Assembly: GCA_016839805.1 (NCBI GenBank) | Contig: JAEOTO010000010.1 | Coordinates: 1 to 36,369, forward strand | Length of the DNA: 36,369 bases | Reading direction: 5' to 3' | From: Candidatus Hermodarchaeota archaeon | GTDB taxonomy: Archaea > Asgardarchaeota > Hermodarchaeia > Hermodarchaeales > Hermodarchaeaceae | Shown here: positions 6,397-24,133 of the stretch, piece by piece | Layout: each line of letters begins with the position of its first letter | Numbering within the stretch: the first letter of the stretch is position 1 | Notes under the pieces: generated by a model | What the model was told of the DNA's origin: nothing | Database searches by the model: none | The model's input: the letters and a program-made list of their open reading frames with translations, nothing else | Made by a program: the position numbers and the translations under genes

Positions 6397-6897
6397 TTGA
6401 TGCGGCGTTTTCTGTATGCAGACCCAACAGTGTGTGTGGGCTGTCGAATTTGTGAAGCGATCTGTAGCTTTCATTGGGAAAAAACTCTTAACCCAAAAAA
6501 AGCGCGGATTCGTGTACGACGAGTAGACCCTGGTTTAGATGTTGTCGTAGCTTGCCGCAACTGTGACCAAGCCTGGTGCATTGAAGCGTGTCCAGAGGAA
6601 GCTTTACGTCGGAACCGTCAAGGAATCATCGTAGTAGATTCGAAGAAATGTCGAGGCTGTGGCGCTTGTGTTGAAGCGTGTCCCTTTGGGGCGATCTTCT
6701 TACATCCGGATACGCAGAAAGCCATCAAATGTGTGGCCTGTGGGTTTTGCACGAATTATTGTCCTGTTAATACACTTCGTATTTTGACTGAAGAAGAACT
6801 TGCAGTATTAAAACAGCAGAAGGTCATTCAGCATGAATGTTCTAATCTCTTGGATGAGTTACGTGTTGAACGAGATATTAAGGAGAGGAAATCATGA
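6397..6897 (+). CDS. 4x[4Fe-4S] polyferredoxin subunit (DmsB-like partner of AOR)
   Basis: CVGCRICEAIC, CRNC..CIEACP, CRGCGACVEACP and CVACGFCTNYCP; overlaps the aor start (ATGA). Confidence 0.92.
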   Translation: MMRRFLYADPTVCVGCRICEAICSFHWEKTLNPKKARIRVRRVDPGLDVVVACRNCDQAWCIEACPEEALRRNRQGIIVVDSKKCRGCGACVEACPFGAIFLHPDTQKAIKCVACGFCTNYCPVNTLRILTEEELAVLKQQKVIQHECSNLLDELRVERDIKERKS

Positions 6898-8819
6898 TGG
6901 TACGGAAAGCTAGGTTAGGTGGATATGCAGGGCAACATTTGTACGTTGACATGACTAAGGAACAATGTAAGACCGTTCCAATAGACCGCAAATTTGCAGT
7001 TACGTATCTCGGAGGACAGGGTTTTTCTTCGCGCATCCTCTACGACGAAGTTGGTCCTCAAACGGATCCACTCGGTCCTGAAAATGTCTTGATTTGGGCT
7101 ACTGGACCCTTTACTGGAACTCTCTGGCCTCAAGCATCGCGTTATGTTGTTGGTGCAAAATCTCCGTTGACCGGTATTTTTGGTGAGGCACATGCAGCAG
7201 GTCACTGGGGTCCCGAACTAAAATTTGCTGGCTTTGATACGATCATCATCACTGGACGTGCAAAAAGACCCCTGTATCTGTTAATTGATAACGGCATCGC
7301 GCAGTTACTTGATGCAAAAGATCTGTGGGGTCATAATACAAATGAAACCGAAGAGATGATTAAGGAAGCTCATAATGACCCCAGTCTCCGAGTCTCCTGT
7401 ATTGGTCAGGCGGGTGAGAATCTTGTCCGCTTTGCAGCGATTATTAATGACTATGACCGAGCTGCGGCACGTTCGGGAATCGGGGCTGTAGCTGGGAGTA
7501 AACGTCTCAAAGCTGTTGCTGTTCGTGGTAGTAAGGATATTCCTATCGCGAAACCCGACCGATATCTTGAGGTTATAGAAGAGTTACACAAAAAAATGTT
7601 GGATAGCCCCTTTACGACAAGCCGGGCGCAATACGGAACTACCAATCTTGTTGAATTGATGCAGGAAATCGGACGTCTTCCAAGTTACAATATGCGGTCT
7701 GGCGTTTTCGCTGAATACAAGAAAATAAGTGGAGAAGCCATCAAGGACCATTACCTCGTCAAACCACGTGCCGATTATGCGTGCTTGCAACGATGTGGAA
7801 GATATACGCTTGTAAGAACAGGACCCTATGCCTATTGTGGCGGAAGCCCTGAATACGAATCTCAATCAGCATTGGGAAGTCGTTGTGGCAATGATAACCT
7901 CGAATCCATCTTATATGGACATCATTTGAGTAACTTGTATGGGCTAGATACAATATCCACCGGTTCCACGATCAGTTGGGCCATGGAGGCTTGGGAAGAG
8001 GGACTTATTACCGCAAAAGACACAGGTGGAATTGATTTGGAATGGGGAAATCATGAGTCAATTATTAAACTCATTCATATGATTGCACATCGTGAAGGAT
8101 TTGGAGATATTCTTGCTGAAGGAAGTTATCGGGCAGCAAAGCGCATTGGGCGAGGAACGGAAAAATTCGTGATGCACTGCAAAAAACAAGAAATTGCCGG
8201 TCAGGAACCTCGGGCTCAAAAGTCGATGGGATTAGCCACCGCCACGGCAGCTCGTGGCGCTGATCACCTATACGCATTTCCAGTTTTGGATGAAGTTGGA
8301 TTTGATGAAGAGATAGGCATTCGATATGGTCAGGAATATTTACCTGAGATTGGAGACCGCTTAAACCCCAAGTTTAAAGGTATTATGGTAAAAGAAAACG
8401 AGGATTTCTGCGCTGTGGTTGAATCGCTTGGTGTCTGCAAATATGGAACACTAATTCCACCAGTTCTTTTCTATGAAGATATTGTTGCTGCATTCGAGGT
8501 TACAGTGGGAATTCACCTTACAGAAGCACAGTTCCGTCAAATTGGAGAACGGATTGTAAACCTAAATCGAGGATTTAATGTTCGCGAAGGAATTCGTCGA
8601 AAGGATGATTCGTTACCACGCCGCCTCACCCACATCCCTGCACCTGAAGGTCCCTCCAAAGGTCAAGTGGTCGAATTAGATCAAATGTTAGATGAATACT
8701 ATGAACAGAGAGGATGGCAATTAAAGACGGGATTACCAAAAACACAAACATTACATCGACTGGATCTTGATGACGTGGCAAACGATCTACTTAAACAAGG
8801 GATAAAATTACCTCAGTGA
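6894..8819 (+). CDS. Aldehyde:ferredoxin oxidoreductase (AOR/WOR) family tungstoenzyme, copy 1
   Basis: KSPLTG, WGPELKFAGFD, IGQAGENLV, GSKRLKAV, PEYES, GLDTISTG, RGADHL and YY..RGW. Confidence 0.95.
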   Translation: MMVRKARLGGYAGQHLYVDMTKEQCKTVPIDRKFAVTYLGGQGFSSRILYDEVGPQTDPLGPENVLIWATGPFTGTLWPQASRYVVGAKSPLTGIFGEAHAAGHWGPELKFAGFDTIIITGRAKRPLYLLIDNGIAQLLDAKDLWGHNTNETEEMIKEAHNDPSLRVSCIGQAGENLVRFAAIINDYDRAAARSGIGAVAGSKRLKAVAVRGSKDIPIAKPDRYLEVIEELHKKMLDSPFTTSRAQYGTTNLVELMQEIGRLPSYNMRSGVFAEYKKISGEAIKDHYLVKPRADYACLQRCGRYTLVRTGPYAYCGGSPEYESQSALGSRCGNDNLESILYGHHLSNLYGLDTISTGSTISWAMEAWEEGLITAKDTGGIDLEWGNHESIIKLIHMIAHREGFGDILAEGSYRAAKRIGRGTEKFVMHCKKQEIAGQEPRAQKSMGLATATAARGADHLYAFPVLDEVGFDEEIGIRYGQEYLPEIGDRLNPKFKGIMVKENEDFCAVVESLGVCKYGTLIPPVLFYEDIVAAFEVTVGIHLTEAQFRQIGERIVNLNRGFNVREGIRRKDDSLPRRLTHIPAPEGPSKGQVVELDQMLDEYYEQRGWQLKTGLPKTQTLHRLDLDDVANDLLKQGIKLPQ

Positions 8820-9037
8820 ACTGCCCCGACCTGAAGGACAGGGCTTCCTGCTTCATGCCATCGACCATTGTCGACTGGTCCACAGGCTCTACTCGCCGTT
8901 CCGGCGATGTTGCCCGGTGATCTAGGACATTGGTTCTCAGTCCCCACTAGGACTTCATCAGTGGATTCCCATTGGAGTATTTAAACTCCCCTTGATTCCT
9001 CCTTGCCCTTAATGACTGGGTCTTCTCAAAACTTTAG
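8816..9037 (-). mobile_element. Non-autonomous IS200/IS605 (TnpB-type) element, 222 bp, retaining LE, TATA box and reRNA-like scaffold
   Basis: Minus strand: TTAT (9041-9038), degenerate LE hairpin, TTTAAATA, hairpins at 8893-8907 and 8858-8878, then GAAGCAGGAAGCCCTGTCCTTCAGGTCGGGGCAGTTCAC (RE). Removing 8816-9037 restores CCT CAA TAA (P-Q-stop) at the aor end. Confidence 0.85.
8978..8985 (-). promoter_or_regulatory. Archaeal TATA box inside the IS605-derived element
   Basis: TTTAAATA with a purine-rich upstream segment. It begins 27 nt upstream of a dead-end ATG AAG TCC TAG at 8958 and points into the reRNA-like scaffold. Confidence 0.5.
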
Positions 9038-9888: not shown

Positions 9889-10662
9889 ATGGCTGATCCA
9901 GGTCCTGCATGGAAATCAATCCTTAAAGTGCTTAAAGAAAACCGAGTTGTTCATCTAACACTAATTGACCCTGACCCCGCCAAACAGTCCTCCACTGTTG
10001 CCGGTAAAATTGCTAAACTTGCTGAAGCAGCCGGAACCAATGGGATAATGGTTGGAGGGTCTACAGCGTTTGGTATAATCGATGAGACACTCCAAAGTAT
10101 CAAAGGGCAGGTTAAAATTCCAGTTCTCTTATTTCCGGGTAACGTTTCAGGGTTGTCACGGTTTGCTGACGCAGTCTTTTTTATGAGCCTCTTAAATTCA
10201 CGGACAACCTATTGGCTAATTGACGCACATACTCTTGCCGCTCGTTATATCAAGGGGTTTAATCTTGAACCTATCTCAATGGCGTATCTTATTGTCCAGC
10301 CAGGGGGTACTGCAGGTTACGTTGGTGATGCACGACTAATACCACGAAATAAACCGGAAATCGCCCTCGGATTTGGTCTAGCGGCACAATACATGGGATT
10401 CCAAATTGTATATCTCGAAGCCGGATCGGGCGCGAAGAACGCAGTTCCGCTCCCAATGATTGAGCTACTTTCCAGTCAGTTAGATGTTCCTATTGCTGTG
10501 GGTGGTGGTATGTCCACACCAGAACAGGCTGCAGCTGTTTCCGCCGCTGGTGCTGAAATTATTGTCCAAGGAACAGCAATTGAACGGACAATTTTAGAGG
10601 ATAACGGAAAACAATTATCAAAGACAATTAAAGCAATTCAACAGGCAAAAAAGCGAGGCTAA
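9889..10662 (+). CDS. Geranylgeranylglyceryl phosphate synthase (group II GGGPS)
   Basis: HLTLIDPD, IMVGGS, LFPGN, FFMSLLNS, VYLEAGSGA and VGGG. Confidence 0.95.
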   Translation: MADPGPAWKSILKVLKENRVVHLTLIDPDPAKQSSTVAGKIAKLAEAAGTNGIMVGGSTAFGIIDETLQSIKGQVKIPVLLFPGNVSGLSRFADAVFFMSLLNSRTTYWLIDAHTLAARYIKGFNLEPISMAYLIVQPGGTAGYVGDARLIPRNKPEIALGFGLAAQYMGFQIVYLEAGSGAKNAVPLPMIELLSSQLDVPIAVGGGMSTPEQAAAVSAAGAEIIVQGTAIERTILEDNGKQLSKTIKAIQQAKKRG

Positions 10663-10952
10663 CTACTCCCACCCCCTATTGGTGGAAACAAGGCTACAAT
10701 GTCTCCATCTGAGAGAGGTGTTTGTAATCCCTGCTGGAGTCGTACATGGCGCCCATTGACCAGGACATGATAATAGGTTTTTAGTGATCCGTCAGGTTCC
10801 AGAATCATCTGATTGAATTTTTCTCCAAATTGTTTGCCGAGTTTGGTTATGACTTCTTGAACGTCTGCAGCCTCTAATTCTATTTCTCTGGTTCCAGTTA
10901 GAGCGCGGAGACTTGTGAACATGCGAACTGTGACTTTAGGCTTTGTGGTCAT
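10659..10952 (-). CDS. MoaD/SAMP ubiquitin-like sulfur carrier with C-terminal extension
   Basis: VLVNGRHV...TPLSDGDIVALFPPIGGGSS. Confidence 0.92.
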   Translation of the reverse strand: MTTKPKVTVRMFTSLRALTGTREIELEAADVQEVITKLGKQFGEKFNQMILEPDGSLKTYYHVLVNGRHVRLQQGLQTPLSDGDIVALFPPIGGGSS

Positions 10953-10967: not shown

Positions 10968-12155
10968 TTACCCACTTATTTCGAAGGAGAGGGCTCGATG
11001 TGGACAAATACTCACGCAAACCCCACATCCATAGCAGAGATTTGAATCGACTTCAGCCTTTGATGTTCCTGGATTGACAGTTATAGCTGAATATGTACAA
11101 GATTTACTGCAAAGGCCACACCCAGAACATGCCTCTTTGTTAACGATGGGTGGAAGACTTTCAGTTCTTAGAGTTTCGGAGGGGAGGTGGGGTAAAGCAA
11201 TACCGTGGACATCTTGAGGAGAATCATGTCCATGGGATTCAAGGAATTCTGTGATTTCCTGGGCGATACGACCATATACTGAGGGTCCTTCAAGGATGGC
11301 AGCGGTGCAAACTTGTACGGCACTTGCACCACACATAATAAACTCGATGGCATCTTCACCTGTGGTGACACCACCTACACCTATTACAGGTTTCTTTGTT
11401 CCTCGAGCAATATCGGCAACACACCGAACCGCAAGGGGTTTGATGGCAGGACCCGAAAGCCAACCAACGCCACCAGGACCACCAAGTAATGGACGACCTG
11501 TTTCAACATCAATATGCAGGCAGGGACCAAGTGTGTTAATTGCTACGAAACCATCAACGTATCGATCGACTGCCTTTATGAAAACCGTCAGGTCTTTCAC
11601 ATGAGGACTCATTTTTGCGAAGACAGGAATCTCCACAGCTTCCTTCAGTGTTTTTGCTACATCGTTGAAGACTTTGGGATCAGTTTCAATATAATGAGTG
11701 CTAAATTCAATCCCATTAACTCCCGCTTTTTCTACAAGGGGAGCGAGTTTTTGCAATTCTTCCGGCGTATACCCCACTGACGCGATAAGGGAAAGTCCTG
11801 CTTTTAGGGCTTGAGGGTATTCATGTTTCAGCCATTTCTGATAAGGTTTGTCACTCCATAATTCATGGTTTAACAGCCCATAAGCTCCTCTGACCTTAAT
11901 TCGTTCAAAATGAACAATTTGGTTCTGCATCGCTGTAGCAAGCAACCATTGGCTCTTTCCTCGATCCAGCGTTTGCATGTTGGGTCTTGGGACCTCAGCA
12001 GGTTTGACGCTGATGGTCTTGGCTACTAAGCCTCCAACCCCCCCTCGTGCTGCTTTGAGAAGCGTTTCTCCATCTCGACTGGTAGGTCCTGCTGCTGTTA
12101 AAACCGGGTTGCGAAGAGGGATTCCAGCTAAATCAACACTTAAATCGATTGGCAT
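10968..12155 (-). CDS. Dihydropyrimidine dehydrogenase PreA / DHODH-like FMN protein with C-terminal 2x[4Fe-4S] domain
   Basis: LRNPV..AAGP, AKT, AKMSP, AINT, GWLSGPAIKP, IGVGGV and GASAVQVCTA; C-terminal CSGCGLC..C and CYGCGVCVSICP. Confidence 0.88.
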   Translation of the reverse strand: MPIDLSVDLAGIPLRNPVLTAAGPTSRDGETLLKAARGGVGGLVAKTISVKPAEVPRPNMQTLDRGKSQWLLATAMQNQIVHFERIKVRGAYGLLNHELWSDKPYQKWLKHEYPQALKAGLSLIASVGYTPEELQKLAPLVEKAGVNGIEFSTHYIETDPKVFNDVAKTLKEAVEIPVFAKMSPHVKDLTVFIKAVDRYVDGFVAINTLGPCLHIDVETGRPLLGGPGGVGWLSGPAIKPLAVRCVADIARGTKKPVIGVGGVTTGEDAIEFIMCGASAVQVCTAAILEGPSVYGRIAQEITEFLESHGHDSPQDVHGIALPHLPSETLRTESLPPIVNKEACSGCGLCSKSCTYSAITVNPGTSKAEVDSNLCYGCGVCVSICPHRALSFEISG

Positions 12156-14092
12156 TATTTTTCAACCACCTTCCCCATTTTAGCTAATTCATCTGCCACA
12201 TCCTCTAAGCCTAACCGTTTCAATTCAGACCGAGTAGGTAGCCCATCTGAAGTCCAATTTCGTACTTCGTAATATTCATCGAGCATAGGGTCAAGATTAC
12301 ATATTTGCCCTTTTCCTGGTCCATCGGGAATAGGCTCTTCCAAGAATCGCGGGTGTAACTGTTCTCGTTCGCGTGTCACGCCCTCTCGCACATTGAAACA
12401 GCGCCGGAGATTACTGATGCGTTCAGCAACCATTCGAAGTTGTTTAATGTCTCCAAATTCCTTAATGCCTGTTAACGGTTTAAGCATTTCAGCAATGATA
12501 TCAAAGTAATAAACAGGGGGCCACATTGTGCCATATTTGCAGAGGATGACACTATCAACTAGAACGTAGAGATCTTCTTGATCTTTGATGAGATGCCCCT
12601 TGAATTTAGTACTATACAAATCCATAACTTCAGATGCGTGCTCTTCTCCAAACCGTTCGATAGCCACATCAGGAAAACCTAGTTCTTCATAGCAGCTAAG
12701 GCTACGAAGATGATCGGCACCTCGTACATTAGTAGCATAGGTTAATCCCACACTTTGTTGGGGTCGGGGATCTTGCCCGGAGGCTTCCATACCCTTTACA
12801 TGAATGGCAAACCGTTCAGCACCCTTACCAATTTTCTGTGCTGCACGCAACGACCCCTCTGCAAGGAGGTCGCCAATTCCTTCTCGGTAGGCGATTTTTT
12901 CAATGAGTGAAATAATTGTTTGGTCGTTTCCCCATGAGAGATCAAGGTTATCTGCTTCCTTAGATGTAATCAGTCCGTGTTCTACCGCTTCAAGCAGGAA
13001 GGCAATAGTGCAGCCTGTGCTAATTGTATCTAAACCATAGCGGTTGCAAAGTTGATTTGCATAAAGGATAGATTCGACATTACTATTGAGGCAATTACTA
13101 CCGAACGCCATCAGTGTTTCATATTCCGGACCACCGGTCATCACTTGGTATGGTCCAGATTTGACCTGCGATGTGTATTTACATTGGAGCGCACAGCCAA
13201 AGCAGGATTCTCGGCTGGTTCGGTATTTTTGTCGAATGGTTTCAGGTCCAATGGCATCGGCTTCAGGAAATACTCCTGTATTATGATTCTTTGTCGGAAG
13301 CCTACCAATTTCGCCAATGGCTGTTACCAGATTGGTTGTGCCATATTTTCCGAGGGATTCCTCGTTCATTTCCCCCCACTTTCCAGTAGTCATTTGTTCA
13401 TAGCCCTTACGGGCTACAGCCATGAACTTTCCCGGATTGGCTACTTGAACGCCACCAAAGCCCCGTGCAGCAATCGCTTTGAGGTTCTTACTACCCATCA
13501 CTGCGCCTCCGCCTGCTCGACCTGCTGCCCGATAATAAGAGCCAATTATCGCAGCATATCGCACCTTGTTTTCTCCCGCGATACCAATTGATGTGACTTC
13601 AACATCGTTATCTCCTTGCTCTTCCTTGATCATATCTGTCGTTTCGGTAGTATCGCGAGTCCACAGGTGACTTGCATCTTTAATGACCACTTCGTTATCC
13701 TGAACCGTTAGATAGACTGGTTTTGGTGCTCGTCCTTGAATGATTAACATATCAAAGCCAGCATACTTTAGCTGAGGACCCCAATGCCCTCCACAATGCG
13801 CTTCCCCCCACACTCCTGTAAGCGGAGATTTGAAGGCCACCATAAAGCGTCCGGAAGGAGAGAAGAAAGCCCCCGTAACAGGTCCAACCCCAAAGATAAG
13901 GGGATTATCAGGATCTAGGGGTTGAGTGTTAGGTGTAACTCGATCCCAAAGAACACGAGCAGCGAAACCAGTTCCTCCCAGATAATTTCTAGCAAAATTG
14001 CTGTCTAGAGGTTTTATTGTTACTTTCGATTTCGTTAAATCAATGTCAGCAATTTGGCCTGCATACCCATAAAAAATATCTTTCTTAGTCAT
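12155..14092 (-). CDS. AOR/WOR family tungstoenzyme, copy 2
   Basis: KSPLTG, AGRAGGGAVMGSKNLKA, CFGCALQC, GPEYET, GLDTISTG and RGADHL. Confidence 0.95.
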   Translation of the reverse strand: MTKKDIFYGYAGQIADIDLTKSKVTIKPLDSNFARNYLGGTGFAARVLWDRVTPNTQPLDPDNPLIFGVGPVTGAFFSPSGRFMVAFKSPLTGVWGEAHCGGHWGPQLKYAGFDMLIIQGRAPKPVYLTVQDNEVVIKDASHLWTRDTTETTDMIKEEQGDNDVEVTSIGIAGENKVRYAAIIGSYYRAAGRAGGGAVMGSKNLKAIAARGFGGVQVANPGKFMAVARKGYEQMTTGKWGEMNEESLGKYGTTNLVTAIGEIGRLPTKNHNTGVFPEADAIGPETIRQKYRTSRESCFGCALQCKYTSQVKSGPYQVMTGGPEYETLMAFGSNCLNSNVESILYANQLCNRYGLDTISTGCTIAFLLEAVEHGLITSKEADNLDLSWGNDQTIISLIEKIAYREGIGDLLAEGSLRAAQKIGKGAERFAIHVKGMEASGQDPRPQQSVGLTYATNVRGADHLRSLSCYEELGFPDVAIERFGEEHASEVMDLYSTKFKGHLIKDQEDLYVLVDSVILCKYGTMWPPVYYFDIIAEMLKPLTGIKEFGDIKQLRMVAERISNLRRCFNVREGVTREREQLHPRFLEEPIPDGPGKGQICNLDPMLDEYYEVRNWTSDGLPTRSELKRLGLEDVADELAKMGKVVEK

Positions 14093-14594
14093 TTGCTACA
14101 CCCCCAGAAATAATTTGGAGATAATCAGCTGCTTTTCTAACACCCTTTTCCCGAAGCACTTTTGTTAGTTCACTTGGCTCAATATACATCAGAGCCCCTC
14201 GTGGACAAAATTGCGCGCACATTGCATAACCTTCACACAAATCGCATTTGACGGTTCGTCCATCAGCTGGATCAATATGAATCCCGCCAAAAGGACAGGC
14301 AACTAAACATTGGTGACAGCCAATACAATTGTCTTGATTAATACAGACCGCGTTGGTCTTCTCATCACGATATATCGCATCTGCAGGACAACTTTCCATG
14401 CATAAAGGCGTATCACAATGCTGACAGATTACAGGAATATTGATTCCTCGTTTTTCATCGCGAATAATTGTAAGTAAAGCCCGTGCGGGATTATATTCCT
14501 GTTCATGTCGGAAGGAACACACAAGAGTACAAATTTCACACCCTGTACATTTCTCAGGATCCACGACTAGAACCTTATGGGCTGACTGCTTCAT
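14085..14594 (-). CDS. 4x[4Fe-4S] polyferredoxin subunit (partner of AOR copy 2)
   Basis: CTGCEICTLVC, CQHC..PLCMESCP, CIGCHQCLVACP and KCDLC..CAQFCP. Confidence 0.92.
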   Translation of the reverse strand: MKQSAHKVLVVDPEKCTGCEICTLVCSFRHEQEYNPARALLTIIRDEKRGINIPVICQHCDTPLCMESCPADAIYRDEKTNAVCINQDNCIGCHQCLVACPFGGIHIDPADGRTVKCDLCEGYAMCAQFCPRGALMYIEPSELTKVLREKGVRKAADYLQIISGGVAND

Positions 14595-14688
14595 GGGAAT
14601 ACACGCCTAAGAAACTGGGACATGGAAGGCTTAAAGGCTTACTTGACAAACTAAACCAGTGATTTTCGGTTCATTTGGGTGAAAAACC

Positions 14689-16020
14689 ATGCGGATACTG
14701 ATTCGCAATGCGATGATTATAACAATGGATTCACAACGACGGGTATTGAAGAATACAGACCTTCTTCTCGAAGATTCCACTATCGCAGTTATTGGAAAGG
14801 CTATCAAAGAGAAAGCAGATAGAATAATTGATGGAACTGGTCGAATGATTTTACCCGGTTTCATCTGTGGGCATACTCATCTTTATGGAATAATGCTTCG
14901 TGGAGCCCCACTCGATATCAAACCTACCACTGATTTTCTACAAATCCTTGACCGAATCTGGTGGAAAGTCGATTCAGCATTTGTCAACGAAGATGCATAT
15001 GCAAGTGCCCTGGCGTCTTGTTACGAGTTTGTTAAGAGTGGAACAACCTGTTTCGCTGATACTTATTCGGGACCAGGATCAATTGAAGGGGTGCTGGATG
15101 CTATCGCAAAGGGCGTAACTCAAGTGGGTATCCGAGGCATTCTAGCATTTGAAGCTACGGAACGAAACTCCAAGAAAGAGGGGGAACGAGGATTAAATGA
15201 AAATATCCGATTCCTGAAAAAACTGCAACAAAATCCTAATGATCTCCTTCATGGGATGTACAGTCTTCACGCCTCATTTACCATTAGTGATGAACTTATC
15301 CAAAAAACGCGTGAACAGGCTGACCAGTTACCGGCTCCTCTCACCATTCACACCAGTGAAGGTCTAATTGATGTTTATCACAACATTGAGCGATACGATA
15401 AACGGACTGTCGAACGCCTTTTTGATCTCGGTGTGCTAGGATCCGATGTCGTTCTTGCTCATTGTGTTCATGTAAACCATGATGAGTTGGAATTGATTCG
15501 GGGAAGCGGAGCCGTAGTTGCGCATAATCCAATGAGTAATATGAATAACGCAGTAGGGGTAGCTCCCGTAAAGGAAATGCATGAATTGGGAATTCCGGTT
15601 TGTTTAGGCAATGATGGCTTCATTTTTGATGCCATTGAAAACATACGAACTGCCTATCTCATCCATAAGGTACATCACTTGGATACCAGAGTGACAACAC
15701 CACAACAAATTATTGAGATGGCTACAATCAATGGTGCACAAGCCTACGGTCTTGATGAAAAAATCGGATCAATCGAACAAGGAAAACAAGCGGATATTGT
15801 AATTCTACACCCGAATCCGCGGGTTACTCCGATGTTGCCTAATGGGTTATATGGCTATATTGTCTATGGCTGTACTGCACATGATGTTGAGCACGTCTTT
15901 GTTCAAGGAAAACAGCTCGTAGACAATCATCAGGTTATTTCAATACAGCCAGAAGTTGTAGAAAAAGCCCTTACACGGGTAGTACCCACATTATGGGAAA
16001 AACTCGGAATTGCTCTCTAG
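14689..16020 (+). CDS. SsnA-like metal-dependent amidohydrolase
   Basis: PGFICGHTHLY..M.RG, DFLQIL..IWWKVD, LHASFT, HTSE, HNPMSNMNNAVG and LGNDG, closely following SsnA motifs as I recall them. Confidence 0.85.
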   Translation: MRILIRNAMIITMDSQRRVLKNTDLLLEDSTIAVIGKAIKEKADRIIDGTGRMILPGFICGHTHLYGIMLRGAPLDIKPTTDFLQILDRIWWKVDSAFVNEDAYASALASCYEFVKSGTTCFADTYSGPGSIEGVLDAIAKGVTQVGIRGILAFEATERNSKKEGERGLNENIRFLKKLQQNPNDLLHGMYSLHASFTISDELIQKTREQADQLPAPLTIHTSEGLIDVYHNIERYDKRTVERLFDLGVLGSDVVLAHCVHVNHDELELIRGSGAVVAHNPMSNMNNAVGVAPVKEMHELGIPVCLGNDGFIFDAIENIRTAYLIHKVHHLDTRVTTPQQIIEMATINGAQAYGLDEKIGSIEQGKQADIVILHPNPRVTPMLPNGLYGYIVYGCTAHDVEHVFVQGKQLVDNHQVISIQPEVVEKALTRVVPTLWEKLGIAL

Positions 16021-16298
16021 CCACCAGAAACTGGCGGAAATACCGCGATAACATCCCCATCAGAGAGAGGGCTCTTTAAGCCCTGTAAAACATGGATGCC
16101 CCGACCATTCACAAGTATCTTGATATAGCGACGAAGTTCTCCTTCTTCATCAAAAACGGTTTCACAAAAAGTAGGTCCCCGGTCTTCGCAGAGTTGATCA
16201 AGAAGGTCCTGAACAGTACTTCCCTTGAGGTTGATTGTGAGCTGATGAAATCCTAGACGTTCAGTGAATGGTCCAATTGTTCGCACAACAACATGCAT
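16017..16298 (-). CDS. MoaD/SAMP ubiquitin-like sulfur carrier
   Basis: ILVNGRGI...PLSDGDVIAVFPPVSGG, with a free C-terminal GG. Confidence 0.92.
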   Translation of the reverse strand: MHVVVRTIGPFTERLGFHQLTINLKGSTVQDLLDQLCEDRGPTFCETVFDEEGELRRYIKILVNGRGIHVLQGLKSPLSDGDVIAVFPPVSGG

Positions 16299-16417: not shown

Positions 16418-17809
16418 ATGGCAGACTTACTGATTGACGGCGCCATGGTTATCACTGTCGATCCTAAACGACGCATCATCTCTGATGGAGCGGTAGTTGT
16501 TGAGAACCAACGAATTATTGCTGTTGGAAAATCTCATGAAATCAAACAGAAATATAGTGCAGATACACGAATTCATGCTAAACAAAAAATCCTAATCCCT
16601 GGACTCATCGACTGCCATGTTCATCTAGCCCAGGCCCTAATCCGTGGAACTGCGGATGATGTTGACCTTATTCCTTGGTTACGCGATTACGTTTGGGTTC
16701 TTCAAGGCAACTTTACTCCTGAAGACGGAAAGGTTAGTGCAGAGCTTTGTATTGCTGAAATGCTCAAATCAGGTACAACGAGTTTCCTCGAAAGTATGAT
16801 TCACAAACGTTATGGCATGGACGGCATTGCGCAAGTGGTTGAAAATACAGGTATCCGAGGTTGTCTTTCTAAACTTTTCATGGATTGGACTGGTTACGCC
16901 GACGAAGAATCCATCATGTATGAGGGAATGATCGAGGATCCAGACGAATGCATTTCTGAGACAATTTCGATGCATAGTAAGTGGGAAGGTGCGGCGGATG
17001 GACGAGTGTTTATCTGGTGGGGTGCCCGGACACCCGGAGCAGTTAGCCCGGAACTATATCGGCGAGTAGCGAATATTGCACGGAAACGTCATATGGGCAT
17101 TACAATGCACTTAGGAGAAGTCAAAGAGGATGTCGAGTACACCAAGACTCAGTTTAATCAACTACCTGCTGAATTTGCACATGATGTAGGGATGATGGGA
17201 AAAAACGTGGTTTTAGTTCATGGTGTTTGGATAAGTCCTAAAGAGTTTCCAATTTACGTGGAAACAGGCACCCATATGTGTCACTGCCCAGCAAGTAACG
17301 CGAAGCTCGCCTCAGGAATTGCATTAATCCCTGAAATGCTCAAAGCTGGAATTAATGTATGTTTGGGCTGTGATGGCGGTCCAAGTAATAACGCTTACGA
17401 CATGTTTCGCGAAATGTTTCTAGCCGCTGTTATACACAAAGCTCGTACTCTCGATCCACTGACTATGCCTGCTGAAACCGTTTTAGAGATGGCAACCATC
17501 AATGGTGCAAAAGCATTAGGCCTTGAAAGAGAAATTGGCAGCATCGAAGTTGGTAAAAAAGCAGATTTAGTTCTCGTAGATACTCACCAATTAAACATCG
17601 CACCTACATATAACCCAGTCAGCAATATTATTTATGCTGCAAATGGCTTCAACGTCTCCACAACTATCGTAAACGGACAAATCCTTGTGCATGAAGGTAA
17701 ACTGTTAACCCTCGATGAAGACCAAGTCATTGAGGAAGCGCGTTCCCGAGGCGAAAAGTTACTCGACCGAGCCGGAGTCAAGATTCAAAGTAGATGGCAA
17801 AGAAATTAA
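16418..17809 (+). CDS. Amidohydrolase/deaminase (MtaD/TRZ-ATZ/8-oxoguanine deaminase-like)
   Basis: PGLIDCHVHL, HLGE, HCPASNAKLASG, LGCDG and MATINGA. Start moved from 16268 to the ATG at 16418, which avoids overlap with moaD and follows a TATA-like CCTTAATA. Confidence 0.9.
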   Translation: MADLLIDGAMVITVDPKRRIISDGAVVVENQRIIAVGKSHEIKQKYSADTRIHAKQKILIPGLIDCHVHLAQALIRGTADDVDLIPWLRDYVWVLQGNFTPEDGKVSAELCIAEMLKSGTTSFLESMIHKRYGMDGIAQVVENTGIRGCLSKLFMDWTGYADEESIMYEGMIEDPDECISETISMHSKWEGAADGRVFIWWGARTPGAVSPELYRRVANIARKRHMGITMHLGEVKEDVEYTKTQFNQLPAEFAHDVGMMGKNVVLVHGVWISPKEFPIYVETGTHMCHCPASNAKLASGIALIPEMLKAGINVCLGCDGGPSNNAYDMFREMFLAAVIHKARTLDPLTMPAETVLEMATINGAKALGLEREIGSIEVGKKADLVLVDTHQLNIAPTYNPVSNIIYAANGFNVSTTIVNGQILVHEGKLLTLDEDQVIEEARSRGEKLLDRAGVKIQSRWQRN

Positions 17810-17853: not shown

Positions 17854-18912
17854 ATGAGCGATAATATTGTAGGAAAATTCCATGGTCGTGATTGGCTGAC
17901 TATTCAAGAATGGTCACAAGAGGATTTGCAGACCCTTATCGATGCCGCTATCAAAATAAAGAAGTTACAAAAGGAGCGGAACCCGCATGACTATCTTCTC
18001 CGACAAACCTTGTTCATGATTTTCTTCAATCGTTCTTTACGAACCCGGAATTCCTTCGAAGCGGGTATGACTCAGATGGGTGGACATGCTCACTTCCTCT
18101 CCCCCCAAGATGTTTACCGACCAGCTTTACCAGATGATGAAGAAGCGTATACCAGTGAACGTATCTCTGATGTTGCCCGTGTCCTTGCACGGATGGGAGA
18201 TGCGATAGCCATTCGAATTTATGGTTCACATGCCAAATGGATTTACGGACGTGGACACCGCATTCTTCGTGAATTCGCGAAATGGTCTGACATTCCCATC
18301 ATCAATATGGAAGATGATGTTTATCATCCCTGTCAGGCCATGGCGGACATGCAAGCTATCCAGGAACACACTCCGAAGGTCCAAGGTAAAAAATTCGTTA
18401 TGAGTTGGGCGTATAGTCCAAGTACGAAGAAACCACTCGCTGTCCCTCAAAGTGGAGTGTTAATGGGAACCAAGTGGGGTATGGATGTCGTGTTAGCCCA
18501 TCCGAAGGGCTTTGAACTCGATCCAAAGATTCTTGAAATGTGTGAAAAAAACGTGGCTCAATATGGTGGTTCCTTTGAGATAACAAATGATATAGAAGAA
18601 GCCTTTGCTGGTGCGCATTTTGTGTATCCCAAGTGTTGGACTAGTAAGCATCACATCCCCCCAATTGCCCCAGCAGAAGATTGGGAAGGTTGTCAGAAAC
18701 TGTTTGATGCCAATAAGAATTGGATCGCTGATGCAGCGAAAATGGATCTTGGAGTAAAAGATGTCAAATACATGCATTGTCTTCCTGCAGATCGTGGTTT
18801 CGAAGTGACTGACGAAGTATTGGATGGAAAATGGAGTATCGCCTTTGATGAGGCCGAAAATCGTTTACACTCACAAAAAGCCATTATGGCGGCTATAATG
18901 GGTCGTCCTTAA
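17854..18912 (+). CDS. Knotted carbamoyltransferase (YgeW / N-acetylornithine carbamoyltransferase-like), copy 1
   Basis: SLRTR, HPCQ and HCLP; WAYSPSTKKPLAVPQ resembles the YgeW WAYSPS.GKPLSVPQ loop. RBS GAGGTGA. Confidence 0.85.
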   Translation: MSDNIVGKFHGRDWLTIQEWSQEDLQTLIDAAIKIKKLQKERNPHDYLLRQTLFMIFFNRSLRTRNSFEAGMTQMGGHAHFLSPQDVYRPALPDDEEAYTSERISDVARVLARMGDAIAIRIYGSHAKWIYGRGHRILREFAKWSDIPIINMEDDVYHPCQAMADMQAIQEHTPKVQGKKFVMSWAYSPSTKKPLAVPQSGVLMGTKWGMDVVLAHPKGFELDPKILEMCEKNVAQYGGSFEITNDIEEAFAGAHFVYPKCWTSKHHIPPIAPAEDWEGCQKLFDANKNWIADAAKMDLGVKDVKYMHCLPADRGFEVTDEVLDGKWSIAFDEAENRLHSQKAIMAAIMGRP

Positions 18913-19950
18913 CTACAATAGGTTCTCATCGCCCATTACAAGGGAAAGGAGTCCTTTTTGGAGGTGCAGCCGGTTTTCAGCTTGATCGAAAATTACGCTT
19001 TGGTCACTATCAACGACTTCATCTGTTGCCTCTTCACCACGAAACACTGGTAAACAATGCATATAGATGGCGTCTTGACTGGCGAGATCCATTAGTTCAG
19101 TGTTGCAAATCCAATTACGATATTTTTCATGGATTTGAGCTTCTTTATCTTCGCCCCATTTGTCAATGCCCATAGCCGCACATTCAGCACTCATCCATGA
19201 ACGAGGGTAGACCACATGAGCTCCTGAGTACCCCTCTTTAACGTCATTTGTGATTGTGAAAGCGCCTCCTGATTCGTTCGCATTCTGATGACACCAATCC
19301 ATGATTTCGGAGTCAAGTTCGAATCCAGGTGGATGAGCAAGTGTGACATCCATACCGAATCGGGTAGCAGTGAGTATGGCGCTTTGAACACTGCACCAGG
19401 ACCTAGAATGACGGCTGTATGCCCATGAAAAGAGAAACTTTTTCCCTTGAATTTTTGGAAAATTTTCTTGGACAGTCATAATATCAGTAAGTGATTGACA
19501 GGGGTGAAATTTATCATCGGCCATATTGATAATTGGCACCTTTGCCCATTTAGCATAATCACGCAGGACCTGGTTTCCTCGTCCATAAACATACCCTACG
19601 GCCTTCTCAAGGATTCGAATGCCTATTCCATGACCGTACCTTGCGAGAGTACATGCTGTGTCCTTAACGCTTTCCCCTTCGCCGAGTCTCATAGCTCCAG
19701 GTTCCAAAAATTGGGCATGGCCTCCAAGTTCAGTTAGTGCTGCTTCAAAGCTAGCACGAGTTCGGGTACTGGTGTTATAGAAAAGCATGAAGAACGTTTT
19801 ATCTGAGAGGAGATGCGGAGATTTTCCAGCCCTGGTTTTTTTCTTGAGCCCTTTAGAAAATTCTAGGACCGCGTCGAGTTCTTCACGGGTCCATTCTTGT
19901 GTTGTGATCATATCTCGTCCACGGAGATCCAGTTTAGCCATTTCGTCCAA
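18913..19950 (-). CDS. Knotted carbamoyltransferase (YgeW-like), copy 2
   Basis: STRTR, HPCQ, WAYS, TRFGMDVTLAHP, VYPRSW, HCLP and QAENR. Lacks the DxxxSMG motif of canonical OTCase. Confidence 0.85.
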   Translation of the reverse strand: MDEMAKLDLRGRDMITTQEWTREELDAVLEFSKGLKKKTRAGKSPHLLSDKTFFMLFYNTSTRTRASFEAALTELGGHAQFLEPGAMRLGEGESVKDTACTLARYGHGIGIRILEKAVGYVYGRGNQVLRDYAKWAKVPIINMADDKFHPCQSLTDIMTVQENFPKIQGKKFLFSWAYSRHSRSWCSVQSAILTATRFGMDVTLAHPPGFELDSEIMDWCHQNANESGGAFTITNDVKEGYSGAHVVYPRSWMSAECAAMGIDKWGEDKEAQIHEKYRNWICNTELMDLASQDAIYMHCLPVFRGEEATDEVVDSDQSVIFDQAENRLHLQKGLLSLVMGDENLL

Positions 19951-20161
19951 CTACCTATTTACGATTTTTTGATGCTGTGGTGACGAAACCTTTTGAAAAT
20001 TTCGTATTTCATACTCTTTGGTATATGTTAACCCTATGTATACATTGGTTCGATTCCCCCATTCATTGTGTTTTACAACCCCCTTAGGTAAATTATCACT
20101 CATTGTTTTTTGCAAAACCTTTTGAGGGTTTTAATGACGCTATCGGCATAGGGATTATAAC

Positions 20162-20956: not shown

Positions 20957-20959
20957 GAA

Positions 20960-22786
20960 TTAGCGCACTGTCAGAGTTTTACTGATATTGCGTGGGTAGT
21001 CGGGATCGATGTTTTTGTATGTGGCGAGATGATAGGCCATGAGTTGTAGAGGAATCGCTTGGAGGATAGGGCTCAAATACTGGTTTGATTCAGGTATCAA
21101 GAAAAAGTCGTCATCTTTTACATATCGTCGAAGTAATGGGTGATCTTCACCGGTTATAATTATCCGTGCACCACGGCACTCTACTTCAGCGAGATGGTTG
21201 ACAAGATGTTCAGAGTCCTTTGGTGCTATTGTAAAGACAATGGGATACCCCTCTTCTACGATGCTGAGGGGACCATGTTTGAATTCACTAGAATACATCC
21301 CATCAGCGACGATATAGCAGACTTCCTTAATTTTTAGAGCGCCCTCCAATGCAACTCCATGAGTGATTCCATAACCAAGGACGTAGAAATGGGAATATTT
21401 AGATAAGTAAGGGGCAAGCGCTCGAGCTTTAATCGTATTCGTTGAAATCGTCTCTTCGATAAGTGCAGGTAAATGGGTCTTTAGATCAGTTATTATCTCT
21501 TCAGCACGAGTGGATTCTAAGACCTCACGTTTTTGCCCACTCAAAGCTGCGAGGTAATTGAAGAGAGTTACTTGGCTCGTGTAAGTTTTTGTTGCAGGGA
21601 CGCTAATTTCAAATCCGGAGCCTAGAGGCAAGTAAAGGTCACTTAGGTGTGTAAGTGTTGAACCTAAGACATTTATAATGCTGAGAATTTTCACATCGCG
21701 ATTTCGACAATGATGAACCACGTCAATAACATCTTTGGTTTCGCCACTTTGACTAACACAAACGACGACATCCCCTTTTCTTACAGCATCGCCGTAATGT
21801 GAAATAAATTGTCCACCAATAACAGGAATGACAGCAACATTCGCTAACTCGTTAAAATAGTAACTGCCAACCACAGCAGCATGATAACTGGATCCACAGG
21901 CAACGAAAAACACCCGGTTCGCATTAATGAGGGAACCTACGAATTGGGAGATGTAAGGTTCACGTATCGCACTGAAGAGTGTGCGGGTGCTGCTAACTTG
22001 TTCGTGAATTTCTTTCAACATGAAATGTGGATAGCCACCCTTTTGAGCGACCCGGATATCAGCATCGGATGTGTAAGGTTTTCTTTCTACGAGCTGACCA
22101 TCGCTGATGCGACGAATTTCAATTGTTGTAGGTGAGAGAATCACTAGTTCTCCGTCATGAATGTTTAAGATTTCACGGGTGATAGGGAGTATACTTGGAA
22201 GATCACTACTTACGCAAGTTTCACCTTTGCCGATACCTGCGAAAAGACTCGAACCCATCTTTACAGCATAGACTTTGTCATCATCTCGATGCATTACAGC
22301 AAAGGCATAATCACCTTTCAGATCATTGCATCCTTTTTGGATGGCTTCGACCATATCGCCAAGCTGGTCATAGTATCGTTCTATTGCGTGAACGCAAATT
22401 TCACCATCATTCATACTGCGTACCGTATGTCCCTCATGGGTATATTGTTCCCTTAGGGGGAGAAAATTCAAAATATTTCCATTATGTGCAGCACACAAAT
22501 CCTCGTCGCAATCAAGGTGCGGTTGAGCGTTGAGTTTACTGGGCGCACCAAATGTTGCCCATCGTAGTTGTGCAATGCCTTTGGAACCCCGCATTTCACT
22601 AAGACGTAATTTCGTAGCTACGATATCGAATTTCCCTTTATCTTTGCGCAGGTGGATTTTGTTCTTGTAAACGGTTGCGCACCCGACTGTATCGTAGCCT
22701 CGATAAGTGAGTTTTTCAGCACATTCTACTAGTGTTTCGCCGATGTTATTTCGTCGATTGCTAGTAATTGCGAATATGCCGCACAC
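20960..22786 (-). CDS. glmS: Glutamine-fructose-6-phosphate transaminase (isomerizing)
   Basis: N-terminal CGI, YRGYD, RWAT, HNGNI, HFMLKEIHEQ, SQSGET, EGALKIKE, KHGP and PRN.SK. Confidence 0.93.
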   Translation of the reverse strand: MCGIFAITSNRRNNIGETLVECAEKLTYRGYDTVGCATVYKNKIHLRKDKGKFDIVATKLRLSEMRGSKGIAQLRWATFGAPSKLNAQPHLDCDEDLCAAHNGNILNFLPLREQYTHEGHTVRSMNDGEICVHAIERYYDQLGDMVEAIQKGCNDLKGDYAFAVMHRDDDKVYAVKMGSSLFAGIGKGETCVSSDLPSILPITREILNIHDGELVILSPTTIEIRRISDGQLVERKPYTSDADIRVAQKGGYPHFMLKEIHEQVSSTRTLFSAIREPYISQFVGSLINANRVFFVACGSSYHAAVVGSYYFNELANVAVIPVIGGQFISHYGDAVRKGDVVVCVSQSGETKDVIDVVHHCRNRDVKILSIINVLGSTLTHLSDLYLPLGSGFEISVPATKTYTSQVTLFNYLAALSGQKREVLESTRAEEIITDLKTHLPALIEETISTNTIKARALAPYLSKYSHFYVLGYGITHGVALEGALKIKEVCYIVADGMYSSEFKHGPLSIVEEGYPIVFTIAPKDSEHLVNHLAEVECRGARIIITGEDHPLLRRYVKDDDFFLIPESNQYLSPILQAIPLQLMAYHLATYKNIDPDYPRNISKTLTVR

Positions 22787-22870
22787 GGATAATAGCTCCT
22801 TATTTCCAGTTTCACAATGTGAAATCGTTTAACTGTGTTTCTATGTTTCATTATTTTGCACTGCGTTTCT

Positions 22871-24133
22871 TCACAAACCTAATGTTTTCTGTAACTGTTT
22901 TAGATCAGGCTCAATCACAGGTGGTGTGGTAATCCTTTGGATTACTATGTCTTGATCTTTTAATCCGCCACCCGTTGCTTCGATAAGGATTGTTTCAGAG
23001 GGATCTTGGTCACCTGATTCGAGCCGATCAATCAGTCCTGCAAGACCAGTGACGCCAGAGGGCTCAGCAAAGATACCCTCATACTTTGCCAGTAATTCTT
23101 GAGCGTGGAGAATTTTATCATCGTTCACTGCAATAGCAGAGCCTTTCGATTCGCGGACGGCCAAGAGAGCTAGATCACCATCCCAGGGAAACGGGTCGCA
23201 TAAGCCTTCTGCAACGCTATGCGGTGAGGCACACGGAATAATGTCAAAGATATCCCGGTTCGTTTCAAAGGCTTGTACGAGGGGAGCACAACCAGAGGCT
23301 TGTACAGCTACCATCCGTGGCTGAGTTTCCACAAGTCCCAGGGTCATGAAATCGGTGAACCCGCGCCATTGACCACCAAGTAGCCCTCCTGCCCCAACTT
23401 GAACATAAGCAACATCAGGAATCTGCCATTCCAACTGCTCAATGATTTCATAAGCCAGAGTTTTGGGACCTTCTGCCTGATAGGGATTGAAGGGCCCAAA
23501 GCTTGGACAGGGGGTCCAACCATAAGTGGAACAAGCCTCACGAAGAAGTCTAACGGTTGGATCATCGCCTTTGTGTAATCCCTTTAGCCGCACAACTTTG
23601 GCACCATAAAGGAGGAGTTGAGCGATTTTTCCCATAGGCGCAATATCGGGGACAAAGCAAAAACATGTGAATCCCGCCCGTGCGCAATAAGCAGCTAAAG
23701 CTGCAGCAGCATTACCACTGCTTGCGGAAGCTAATGTTGTCGTGCCTTGTTCGTTTGCCTTTGAAACGCCTACGGTCATTGGTCGATCTTTAAATGACCA
23801 AGTGGGATTCCGAGTTTCATCTTTAATATACAAATCACGAACGCCCAATGCTTCGGCAAGTCTTTGGCTTTTGACCAGGGGAGTCCCTCCCTCACCAAGG
23901 CTTACTATATTTGCCCGATTAGATACGGGAAGTAGTTCAAAGTAACTCCAAACGCTTAGAGAACGAGCCGATAGGATTTTCTTAGAAAGTACTTCCTGTA
24001 GACGTGAATAATCATAATGCACATCGATTCGCGCCCCACATTCGGGGGTTTCACAAAATTGCGGAGTTTCTAAGGGATTATAGTCAGTATTACACTTTGG
24101 ACAATGAAGACGGGTGACATAAGACATATTCAA
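22871..24133 (-). CDS. Threonine synthase-like PLP enzyme (fold type II)
   Basis: N-terminal Zn-ribbon-like Cys pairs, SLGEGGTPL, NPTWSFKDR, ASSGNAA, EGIFAEP and TGGGLKD. Confidence 0.88.
   Translation of the reverse strand: MNMSYVTRLHCPKCNTDYNPLETPQFCETPECGARIDVHYDYSRLQEVLSKKILSARSLSVWSYFELLPVSNRANIVSLGEGGTPLVKSQRLAEALGVRDLYIKDETRNPTWSFKDRPMTVGVSKANEQGTTTLASASSGNAAAALAAYCARAGFTCFCFVPDIAPMGKIAQLLLYGAKVVRLKGLHKGDDPTVRLLREACSTYGWTPCPSFGPFNPYQAEGPKTLAYEIIEQLEWQIPDVAYVQVGAGGLLGGQWRGFTDFMTLGLVETQPRMVAVQASGCAPLVQAFETNRDIFDIIPCASPHSVAEGLCDPFPWDGDLALLAVRESKGSAIAVNDDKILHAQELLAKYEGIFAEPSGVTGLAGLIDRLESGDQDPSETILIEATGGGLKDQDIVIQRITTPPVIEPDLKQLQKTLGL

Follow-up and report, generated by a model that had tools for sequence, protein, structure and literature searches.

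A candidate archaeal module for anaerobic breakdown of purine-type N-heterocycles in a Hermodarchaeal genome

How could purines be broken down anaerobically by an archaeon without an enzyme of the Xdh family? This question is raised by a locus of about 18 kb from a Candidatus Hermodarchaeota archaeon (GCA_016839805.1, contig JAEOTO010000010.1), located at positions 6,397 to 24,133 of the 36,369-nucleotide stretch of DNA that was analysed and that is referred to here as the window. The locus encodes two enzymes of the aldehyde oxidoreductase (AOR) family with their polyferredoxins, a reductase resembling PreA, an SsnA-like and a second amidohydrolase (Amh2), two carbamoyltransferases (CT1 and CT2), two MoaD proteins and a ThrC-like pyridoxal phosphate (PLP) enzyme (Table 1). 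No match to PF02738, the Xdh-type Mo domain, was found in the genome, a 2.31-Mb metagenome-assembled genome (MAG) that is 86.7% complete and whose nearest homologues bear Hermod-, Hod-, Thor- and Promethearchaeota names. In the original prediction, made from the window alone, these genes were read as a tungsten-based purine or urate pathway in which AORs replace Xdh. We propose, with a probability of roughly 0.42, that the locus represents the Hermodarchaeal form of a module, widespread in archaea, for the anaerobic breakdown of purine-type N-heterocycles with ferredoxin-type wiring. The module is related to the bacterial reductive urate/2,8-dioxopurine pathway. That the genes constitute a conserved N-heterocycle catabolic module, whatever its exact substrate, can be stated with considerable confidence.

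Conservation of the cluster across archaea

Relatives of the PreA-like protein were sought in one genome per species; 206 were returned and 80 loci were kept, and the open reading frames (ORFs) of these loci were classed by BLAST against the window proteins and the urate-cluster proteins of E. coli K-12. Distant loci were defined by less than 75% identity and at least 5 kb of sequence on both sides (n=42). An AOR and a polyferredoxin are encoded in 39/42 distant loci, and two or three AORs in 36/42. A COG0402 amidohydrolase and a HyuA-type amidohydrolase are each present in 32/42 and MoaD in 28/42, followed by carbamoyltransferases (5/42), an M20 peptidase (4/42), a ThrC-like enzyme (3/42) and carbamate kinase (2/42); Xdh is found in 0/42. 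Because 39 of the 42 distant loci repeat the association, the gene arrangement is far beyond chance.

The lineages with such loci comprise Hermod-, Baldr-, Thor- and Heimdallarchaeota, Bathyarchaeia, Nitrososphaeria, Korarchaeia-type genomes, Geothermarchaeota, Hadarchaeota and Desulfurococcaceae. PreA-like homologues with 50-62% identity are encoded in polyferredoxin-AOR-PreA-like operons of Asgard archaea, Bathyarchaeia, Nitrososphaeria, Korarchaeia-type genomes, Geothermarchaeota and other archaea. The neighbourhoods of homologues with 54-62% identity contain single-strand operons of this kind together with further polyferredoxin-AOR pairs, ThiS/MoaD proteins and amidohydrolases; one such neighbourhood has a PNP_UDP-like gene, and another a Bmp/PnrA-type ABC transporter and an OTCase-fold gene. 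The original prediction was to be abandoned if its genes did not occur together elsewhere, and on this point it survives, since orthologues of the AORs, the PreA-like protein, the SsnA-like protein and the two carbamoyltransferases are found together in distant phyla of archaea.

Some loci hold additional genes. In about 8-10 Thorarchaeota loci, genes for an MvhD-like protein and the small and large subunits of a [NiFe]-hydrogenase are found just downstream of the AOR/PreA-like cluster (for instance at L043:18381-18971, L061:18811-19731 and L058:10391-11707), and in Thorarchaeota an M24 peptidase and a PfkB kinase gene lie between the genes for the PreA-like protein and MoaD. In L062 and L066, MoaD genes are found with PreA-like/SsnA-like clusters as well, although no AOR gene is adjacent there.

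The enzymes of the cluster

The genome encodes eight AOR paralogues. In a tree of 112 AORs with E. coli YdhV as the root, the cluster-linked AORs all fall into one clade (support 98), and five of the eight paralogues of this genome fall outside it (one each on contigs C41, C23 and C27 and two on C21). The clade consists of three orthologous subclades, A, B and C, each with a conserved operon position: subclade C, to which AOR2 belongs, is encoded directly upstream of the PreA-like gene, subclade B after the PreA-like and polyferredoxin genes, and subclade A (support 99), which includes AOR1, in a distal position. The subclade-B member of this genome is encoded outside the window on contig C26, as an isolated polyferredoxin-AOR pair amid unrelated genes. 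Membership of the AOR family is supported by the domains PF02730 and PF01314, by equivalents of the catalytic Glu and His and by the [4Fe-4S] ligands, the only deviation being the first cluster Cys, which is an Asp in AOR1 and most of subclade A. The best solved relatives of AOR2 are 9mqx_D (449 bits) and PfAOR (1aor, 424 bits), both true aldehyde oxidoreductases, and AOR2 retains Glu313, His448 and the four Fe-S cysteines of PfAOR. In AOR1, which carries a GADH motif, residue 294 is an Asp in place of the first [4Fe-4S] cysteine (D-x-x-C-x-x-x-C), as it is in 34/36 subclade-A AORs, and this replacement points to a cluster peculiar to subclade A that may be ligated by Asp or altered in another way. 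Also, an Asp directly precedes the catalytic His in every cluster AOR (n=106), where PfAOR has a Cys and most paralogues differ. Among solved structures, polyFd2, the second polyferredoxin of the window, is best matched by two small subunits of AORs, 8c0z_C (126 bits) and 9mqx_E (122 bits). In published studies, the AORs of Asgard archaea are regarded as aldehyde oxidisers. What is conserved here, as judged from the genes, is the functional coupling of three specialised AORs to a ring reductase.

The putative ring reductase differs from PreA in several respects. The window protein scores 192 with the PreA model, against a cut-off of 335, and an alignment with E. coli PreA and the genome's own PyrD reveals an 8-residue deletion that takes out the catalytic Asn-x-Ser-Cys-Pro loop, the sequence now reading IEFSTHY, as well as an inserted stretch of some 20 residues close to the N-terminus. 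Residues E150, S152, H154 and Y155 are invariant across the family of the PreA-like protein. The short loop is found in 66/115 full-length relatives obtained by an exhaustive representative search, the loop-bearing proteins of the dihydropyrimidine dehydrogenase (DPD) type being more distant, and a genuine PreA paralogue with the loop, PreA2, is encoded elsewhere in the genome on contig C45. An Xdh-linked bacterial comparator with the loop deletion was not encountered in the two contexts sampled, an AOR operon (L095) and an unrelated neighbourhood of F420-biosynthesis genes (L097). In the former (L095:4287-13515), a more distant short-loop protein with 35% identity and the loop IELVSY is encoded in an operon with the order AOR-ThiS-Fer4-amidohydrolase-PreA-like-AOR-amidohydrolase, near which a helix-turn-helix/cupin regulator and a methenyl-H4MPT cyclohydrolase gene are located. 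Homology of the PreA-like protein to YgfK was considered and rejected, as the alignment is restricted to Fe-S motifs.

The amidohydrolase encoded next to this operon is most similar to SsnA, as had been predicted from the window alone. It shares 29% identity with E. coli SsnA (194 bits; 88 bits with GuaD), and its orthologues (47-55% identity), which adjoin the PreA-like gene in several phyla (L003, L062, L066, L076, L089), match E. coli SsnA with about 31% identity and 200 bits and GuaD with about 90 bits. Proteins of the Amh2 type have the opposite pattern, GuaD being favoured over SsnA. Signatures common to the window protein and the validated E. coli SsnA and not found in GuaD or Amh2 are the lack of a Gln after HxH, the motifs P..DF...L...WW..D, HA.FT and HN..SNMNN.VG, and a 4-residue deletion after LG.DG. 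Amh2 itself gives its best scores with DadD/TRZ-ATZ models (420 < 522), has the deaminase-type motifs HxHxxQ, HxxE and HCPxSN and has orthologues with 53-55% identity in Thor- and Heimdallarchaeota clusters. Its ORF is open from 16268, and homology begins at about residue 51. The two MoaD proteins both exceed the TIGR01687 cut-off for the MoaD/SAMP type. According to the translations, MoaD2 ends in a free Gly-Gly and MoaD1 in GG followed by GSS, a tail that would need trimming, as in ubiquitin-like SAMPs.

CT1 and CT2 are 46% identical to each other and each 31-33% identical to E. coli YgeW, and their best models are AOTC/OTC (293/276 bits). The carbamoyl-phosphate motifs are intact in the two proteins. 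They have no counterpart of DxxxSMG, the ornithine motif of ornithine carbamoyltransferase (OTC), the SMG of which is retained in the genome's own OTC, and they share the motifs WAYSP..PQS, GMDV.LAHP and YP(K/R)xW with YgeW. Since canonical genes resembling those for OTC and aspartate carbamoyltransferase (ATC) are present on contigs C13 and C6, respectively, CT1 and CT2 are extra paralogues. Orthologues of the CT1 type (63-65% identity) are found in the Nitrososphaeria clusters L024, L027 and L028 and beside carbamate kinase in L089. Orthologues of the CT2 type (47-60% identity) are found in the clusters L024, L027, L028 and L062 and, in Hadarchaeota-type genomes, directly downstream of polyferredoxin-AOR genes. 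In the Nitrososphaeria clusters, the two types flank a hydantoinase, and a carbamate kinase gene adjoins a carbamoyltransferase gene in L062 and L089.

The window encodes no hydantoinase and no carbamate kinase, as the original prediction had noted (ORF listing and Pfam/NCBIfam scans), and of these two enzymes, for which it suggested a search of the genome, the kinase was recovered. It is encoded outside the window at C31:7808-8767 (TIGR00746, 371 > 358; NF009007, 410 > 266) and is present in 5/5 sister genomes. No HyuA-type hydantoinase was found in this MAG; the sole match, a hydantoinase-like gene on C6, was rejected as HyuA, being PyrC within a pyrD-pyrC-pyrK operon. The carbamate kinase gene is divergent from one for a 324-residue PLP enzyme (C31:6710-8767, locus L093) of the threo-3-hydroxyaspartate ammonia-lyase/serine-threonine dehydratase type (426 bits; cut-off 452), which possibly acts as the terminal ammonia-lyase of the pathway.

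A 2,3-diaminopropionate ammonia-lyase of the YgeX type was not found, as both the window and the C31 PLP enzymes fail, the latter with a score of 69 against 276 on the corresponding model. The suggestion that the window PLP enzyme is the counterpart of YgeX is thereby weakened: it passes the threonine synthase equivalog NF006050 (343 > 303), it is the only ThrC above cut-off and hence the sole threonine synthase of the genome, and it is 22% identical to YgeX over 205 residues. The TatD and GlmS genes separate it from CT2. In the Nitrososphaeria clusters L024, L027 and L028, ThrC-like homologues (50-54% identity) are embedded as second copies; overall, we consider it doubtful that the ThrC-like gene belongs to the pathway.

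Proposed pathway and competing explanations

We hypothesize that Amh2 would convert an aminopurine or its nucleoside to an oxopurine and that AOR1, AOR2 and the subclade-B enzyme encoded on C26, each with an AorA-type polyferredoxin, would adjust the hydroxylation of ring carbons, the job of XdhA/XdhD in bacteria. The polyferredoxins would carry electrons between the AORs and the PreA-like flavoprotein, which has neither a PreT partner nor the catalytic Cys and which would reduce (dearomatise) the ring. Next, the SsnA-like hydrolase would open the ring and thereby pull the ring reduction, and the second ring would be opened by a hydantoinase-type enzyme encoded elsewhere and missing from this MAG. 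Subsequently, CT1 and CT2 would phosphorolytically cleave the two ureido groups to carbamoyl phosphate, from which the carbamate kinase encoded on C31 would form ATP; the MoaD proteins would serve the maturation of the pterin cofactor. All of these reactions are inferred from gene content and conservation. Action of the AORs on the ring itself is proposed tentatively, at somewhat less than even odds, and the fuller scheme, in which three AOR clades would (de)hydroxylate purine carbons, a substrate class new to the family, and be wired through AorA-type polyferredoxins to a Cys-less flavoprotein in a self-contained, near redox-balanced, Xdh-independent purine fermentation that would gain ATP by way of the two carbamoyltransferases and carbamate kinase and be widespread in Asgard and other sediment archaea, is possible and a little more doubtful still.

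Several observations weigh against this reading. The classical Glu313/His448 pair is invariant in 106/106 cluster AORs, and nothing in the AOR sequences demands a new substrate class. The label SsnA-like holds as far as the best-scoring family and the signatures are concerned, but the protein stays below the cut-offs of the SsnA models NF005540 and TIGR03314 (379.6 vs 444 and 359.7 vs 455.5). Likewise, the YgeW motifs of CT1 and CT2 bear out their label, but the curated YgeW models TIGR03316/NF005538 fail, with scores of 142/148 for CT1 and 155/167 for CT2 against cut-offs of 500/453. The Thorarchaeota clusters pair with hydrolases of the deaminase and hydantoinase types, not of the SsnA type, so that substrates may differ between lineages. 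The genes of this genome are spread over at least five transcription units and three contigs, and in seven promoter regions (window, C26 and C31) no common operator motif was detected above shuffled controls, a weak test whose result does not speak against a regulon. Finally, Xdh and the AOR cluster occur together in 9/14 Thermoproteota genomes and in both Hadarchaeota genomes (2/2). The AORs are therefore not simply a substitute for Xdh, and the strict anti-correlation between the two, proposed as a check of the original prediction, was rejected, as it holds within Asgard archaea and breaks down in these two groups.

Within the loci themselves, an Xdh homologue was found in 0/80, and the Asgard or Thor-like genomes that carry the cluster, about 36 in number, have no credible Xdh. 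A genome of the Desulfurococcaceae (G007) has a carbamoyltransferase-carbamate kinase-SsnA-like-PreA-like cluster and no AOR of the cluster clade (best match 36% identity), together with three XdhABC sets, two of which flank a hydantoinase. From the genes, we tentatively infer that the AORs may perform the Xdh step.

Alternatively, the N-heterocycle module may be the same and the AORs conventional aldehyde:ferredoxin oxidoreductases, which would oxidise an aldehyde or reduce an acid, would serve only as low-potential electron source or sink for the PreA-like reductase by way of the polyferredoxins and would not act on the heterocycle at all. This would agree with the Glu/His pair and Fe-S ligands kept in the 106 cluster AORs and with aldehyde oxidoreductases as their closest structures, with a polyferredoxin that corresponds to the AorA/WorS electron-wire subunit and with the translational coupling of polyferredoxin, AOR and PreA-like protein. 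The presence of Xdh in many Thermoproteota genomes with the cluster would also fit a role of the AORs other than that of Xdh. In the AOR-less G007, a GltD-like protein and a polyferredoxin are encoded next to the Xdh genes. However, the conserved neighbours show no evident aldehyde-forming step, three positioned subclades with an Asp-His signature exceed the needs of a generic electron donor, and the five AORs outside the clade could cover general aldehyde oxidation, so that we regard a purely electron-carrying role as unlikely.

A second alternative concerns the substrate, which could be another N-heterocycle or ureide, such as modified or oxidised bases, pterins, hydantoins or creatinine-type compounds, degraded by a route that only resembles the 2,8-dioxopurine pathway. 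The SsnA-like protein, CT1, CT2 and the PreA-like protein are all below the curated cut-offs of their nearest families, the active-site loop of the last is rebuilt, and accessory genes differ by lineage (the M24 peptidase and PfkB genes of Thorarchaeota; SsnA-type versus hydantoinase-type hydrolases). Against this, SsnA-specific motifs are shared with a validated enzyme, twin carbamoyltransferases would suit a di-ureido intermediate, and transporter genes of the PnrA/Bmp purine-nucleoside type are adjacent in 8 loci, where they flank the cluster. A substrate of this kind is improbable in our view.

A third alternative is a ferredoxin-dependent reductive pyrimidine (uracil, thymine or cytosine) pathway in which Amh2 would act as cytosine deaminase, the PreA-like protein as PydA and one of the amidohydrolases as PydB, with PydC replaced by a carbamoyltransferase and carbamate kinase. 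The architecture of the reductase does resemble PydAc (PMC7332683), and Thorarchaeota clusters join the PreA-like protein with hydrolases of the deaminase and dihydropyrimidinase types. Hermodarchaeota, however, possess a separate pyrimidine locus. A true dihydropyrimidinase, above its cut-off, is encoded in 5/5 sister genomes (487-503 bits) at a locus that also holds a PreA paralogue, a CN-hydrolase of the N-carbamoyl amidase type and a class-III aminotransferase; the PreA2 of the lineage scores 440, above the PreA cut-off, and has the loop NVSCP. Judged by its four genes, the sister locus is a canonical reductive pyrimidine cluster. In the MAG studied here, PreA2 and the aminotransferase are located at the very start of contig C45 (C45:1-2183), where the cluster is cut by the contig start, and the hydantoinase was for this reason probably lost in an assembly gap. 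In the sister loci L119-L121, the four-gene pyrimidine block lies between genes that are adjacent on contig C32 of this genome, and the block may be a movable insertion. A pyrimidine substrate is further opposed by the absence, from the window PreA-like protein, of the catalytic Cys loop used by DPDs, by the SsnA type of the adjoining hydrolase and by the conservation of two distinct carbamoyltransferases, as one pyrimidine gives a single ureido group; we hold it to be highly improbable. Hence, given the separate pyrimidine cluster, a hydrolase of the SsnA type, the pair of carbamoyltransferases and the transporter genes of the PnrA type, the substrate is probably of the purine rather than the pyrimidine type. 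The PfkB kinase genes of the Thorarchaeota loci and the resemblance of the reductase to UacX in its published architecture point the same way.

Lastly, that the genes are unrelated neighbours, the AORs serving to detoxify aldehydes, the carbamoyltransferases to make arginine or pyrimidines and the amidohydrolases in salvage, is scarcely credible, because for all the interspersed genes, the several strand switches and the want of a common upstream motif, these orthologues are found together in three or more phyla of archaea, often in operons on one strand, and canonical OTC, ATC, PyrC and PyrD are encoded elsewhere in the genome.

Layout of the locus, related systems and meaning

Every gene named in the original prediction was recovered where it had been placed (ORF listing and Pfam/NCBIfam scans). 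The first polyferredoxin gene, polyFd1, overlaps that of AOR1 by 4 nt. The minus-strand operon polyFd2-AOR2-PreA-like-MoaD1 runs from 14594 down to 10659, with MoaD1 as its last gene and overlaps of 8 nt between polyFd2 and AOR2 and of 1 nt between the AOR2 stop and the PreA-like start; CT1 and CT2 are convergent (17854-19950). The GTPase, GGGPS, TatD and GlmS genes are interspersed as had been noted and, being conserved syntenically in close relatives only, are passengers.

Table 1. Features of the locus, with positions in the window.
Feature	Coordinates	Strand	Assignment	Basis
polyFd1	6397..6897	+	AorA/WorS-type multi-[4Fe-4S] small subunit	Pfam Fer4 families
AOR1	6894..8819	+	AOR family, cluster subclade A	PF02730+PF01314
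MoaD1	10659..10952	-	MoaD/SAMP-type small sulfur carrier	TIGR01687 77.5 > 49.5
PreA-like	10968..12155	-	PreA/DPD-like FMN barrel with C-terminal 2x[4Fe-4S] domain	PF01180+Fer4
AOR2	12155..14092	-	AOR family, cluster subclade C	Pfam AOR domains, tree
polyFd2	14085..14594	-	AorA/WorS-type polyferredoxin	Solved AOR small subunits as best matches
Divergent intergenic region	14595..14688		94 bp, common to polyFd2 operon and SsnA-like gene	Sequence
SsnA-like	14689..16020	+	COG0402 amidohydrolase, candidate ring-opening hydrolase coupled to the PreA-like reductase	
MoaD2	16017..16298	-	MoaD/SAMP-type	TIGR01687 70.5 > 49.5
Amh2	about 16418..17809	+	Deaminase-type COG0402 amidohydrolase	
CT1	17854..18912	+	Non-canonical carbamoyltransferase, YgeW-like in motifs	
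CT2	18913..19950	-	Second carbamoyltransferase, paralogue of CT1	
PLP enzyme	22871..24133	-	Threonine synthase family	

Two copies of the element AAACCTTTTGA are located in the intergenic region between CT2 and TatD (19951-20161) and are likely the two divergent promoters. An ORF of 208 amino acids without a Pfam or NCBIfam match (24130-24756) has a 4-nt overlap with the start of the ThrC-like gene, with which it is apparently transcribed. Further on, between 25008 and 30877, a 1165-amino-acid transglutaminase-core/TgpA_N protein with Ig-like domains is followed by a 482-amino-acid ORF without an NCBIfam match and a MoxR/ChlI-like AAA ATPase.

The closest counterpart among described systems is the C. 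difficile-type reductive uric-acid/2,8-dioxopurine pathway, which consists of XdhD, UacX, SsnA, HyuA, UacY or YgeW plus YqeA, YgeY and YgeX (PMC12507026; bioRxiv 10.1101/2025.04.24.650524). In C. difficile, UacX is a PF01180 FMN/Fe-S protein without an FAD domain (Li et al., PMC12507026); its reduction of 2,8-dioxopurine depends on coupling to SsnA, and the genes of the two proteins are usually neighbours (PMC12507026). The PreA-like protein resembles UacX, by its published description, in combining PF01180 with 2x[4Fe-4S], in having no FAD/NAD domain and in being encoded next to an SsnA-like gene, which in the window is divergent. The archaeal system further shares with the bacterial pathway a hydantoinase-type second hydrolase in its distant members, OTCase-fold carbamoyltransferases with YgeW motifs plus carbamate kinase, and an anaerobic, ferredoxin-linked logic. 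It differs in having no Xdh and instead two to three AORs, which are accompanied by AorA-type polyferredoxins and MoaD and show translational coupling to the reductase, in having two carbamoyltransferase paralogues where the bacteria have YgeW plus YgeY, in the absence of YgeX and in an SsnA-like protein, CT1 and CT2 that fall short of the curated family cut-offs. It is also archaeal, whereas published surveys of the urate pathway cover bacteria only.

Parts of the cluster resemble other known enzymes. As in AorABC of Aromatoleum aromaticum (PDB 8c0z) and the 9mqx AOR, a catalytic AOR is paired with a four-cluster polyferredoxin small subunit, and a MoaD-like gene and a third redox subunit are encoded in the operon. 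In contrast to these systems, however, the third subunit would be a DPD/dihydroorotate dehydrogenase-fold FMN/Fe-S protein with a substrate-type barrel and not an FAD/NAD(H) module, and the operon lies amid ring-opening amidohydrolases. With PydAc of Clostridium chromiireducens (PMC7332683) and E. coli PreA, the reductase shares a PF01180 FMN barrel and a two-[4Fe-4S] ferredoxin-type domain, and like PydAc it has no adjacent gene for an NAD(P)H-binding PreT partner, but it departs from both in its deleted NxSCP loop, its N-terminal insertion and its low score with the PreA model. The class II benzoyl-CoA reductase BamB-BamC (PDB 4z3w) likewise combines an AOR-family protein with a polyferredoxin, and BamB provides a precedent for ring chemistry in the family; it is far more distant (260 bits, partial-length alignment), and the cluster AORs differ from it in keeping the classical Glu/His pair and having no CoA-ester logic.

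In full-text searches of the literature, no paper was found that links AOR-family enzymes to SsnA or to purine or urate breakdown, and the cluster most likely represents a variant, not described so far, of the reductive purine pathway. It was not until 2025 that the anaerobic purine route was elucidated, and then in bacteria only. If the module is its archaeal counterpart, it would explain how ATP is obtained from the fermentation of nucleic-acid bases in abundant sediment archaea (Asgard archaea, Bathyarchaeia and others), and it would give a function to some of their many unclassified, highly expressed AOR paralogues. The three AOR clades, together with the Cys-less reductase and the pair of carbamoyltransferases, offer concrete targets for expression and assay. 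Should the AORs act on the ring, tungsten AOR chemistry would extend past aldehydes and benzoyl-CoA, and purine hydroxylation and dehydroxylation would have a second solution that evolved independently.

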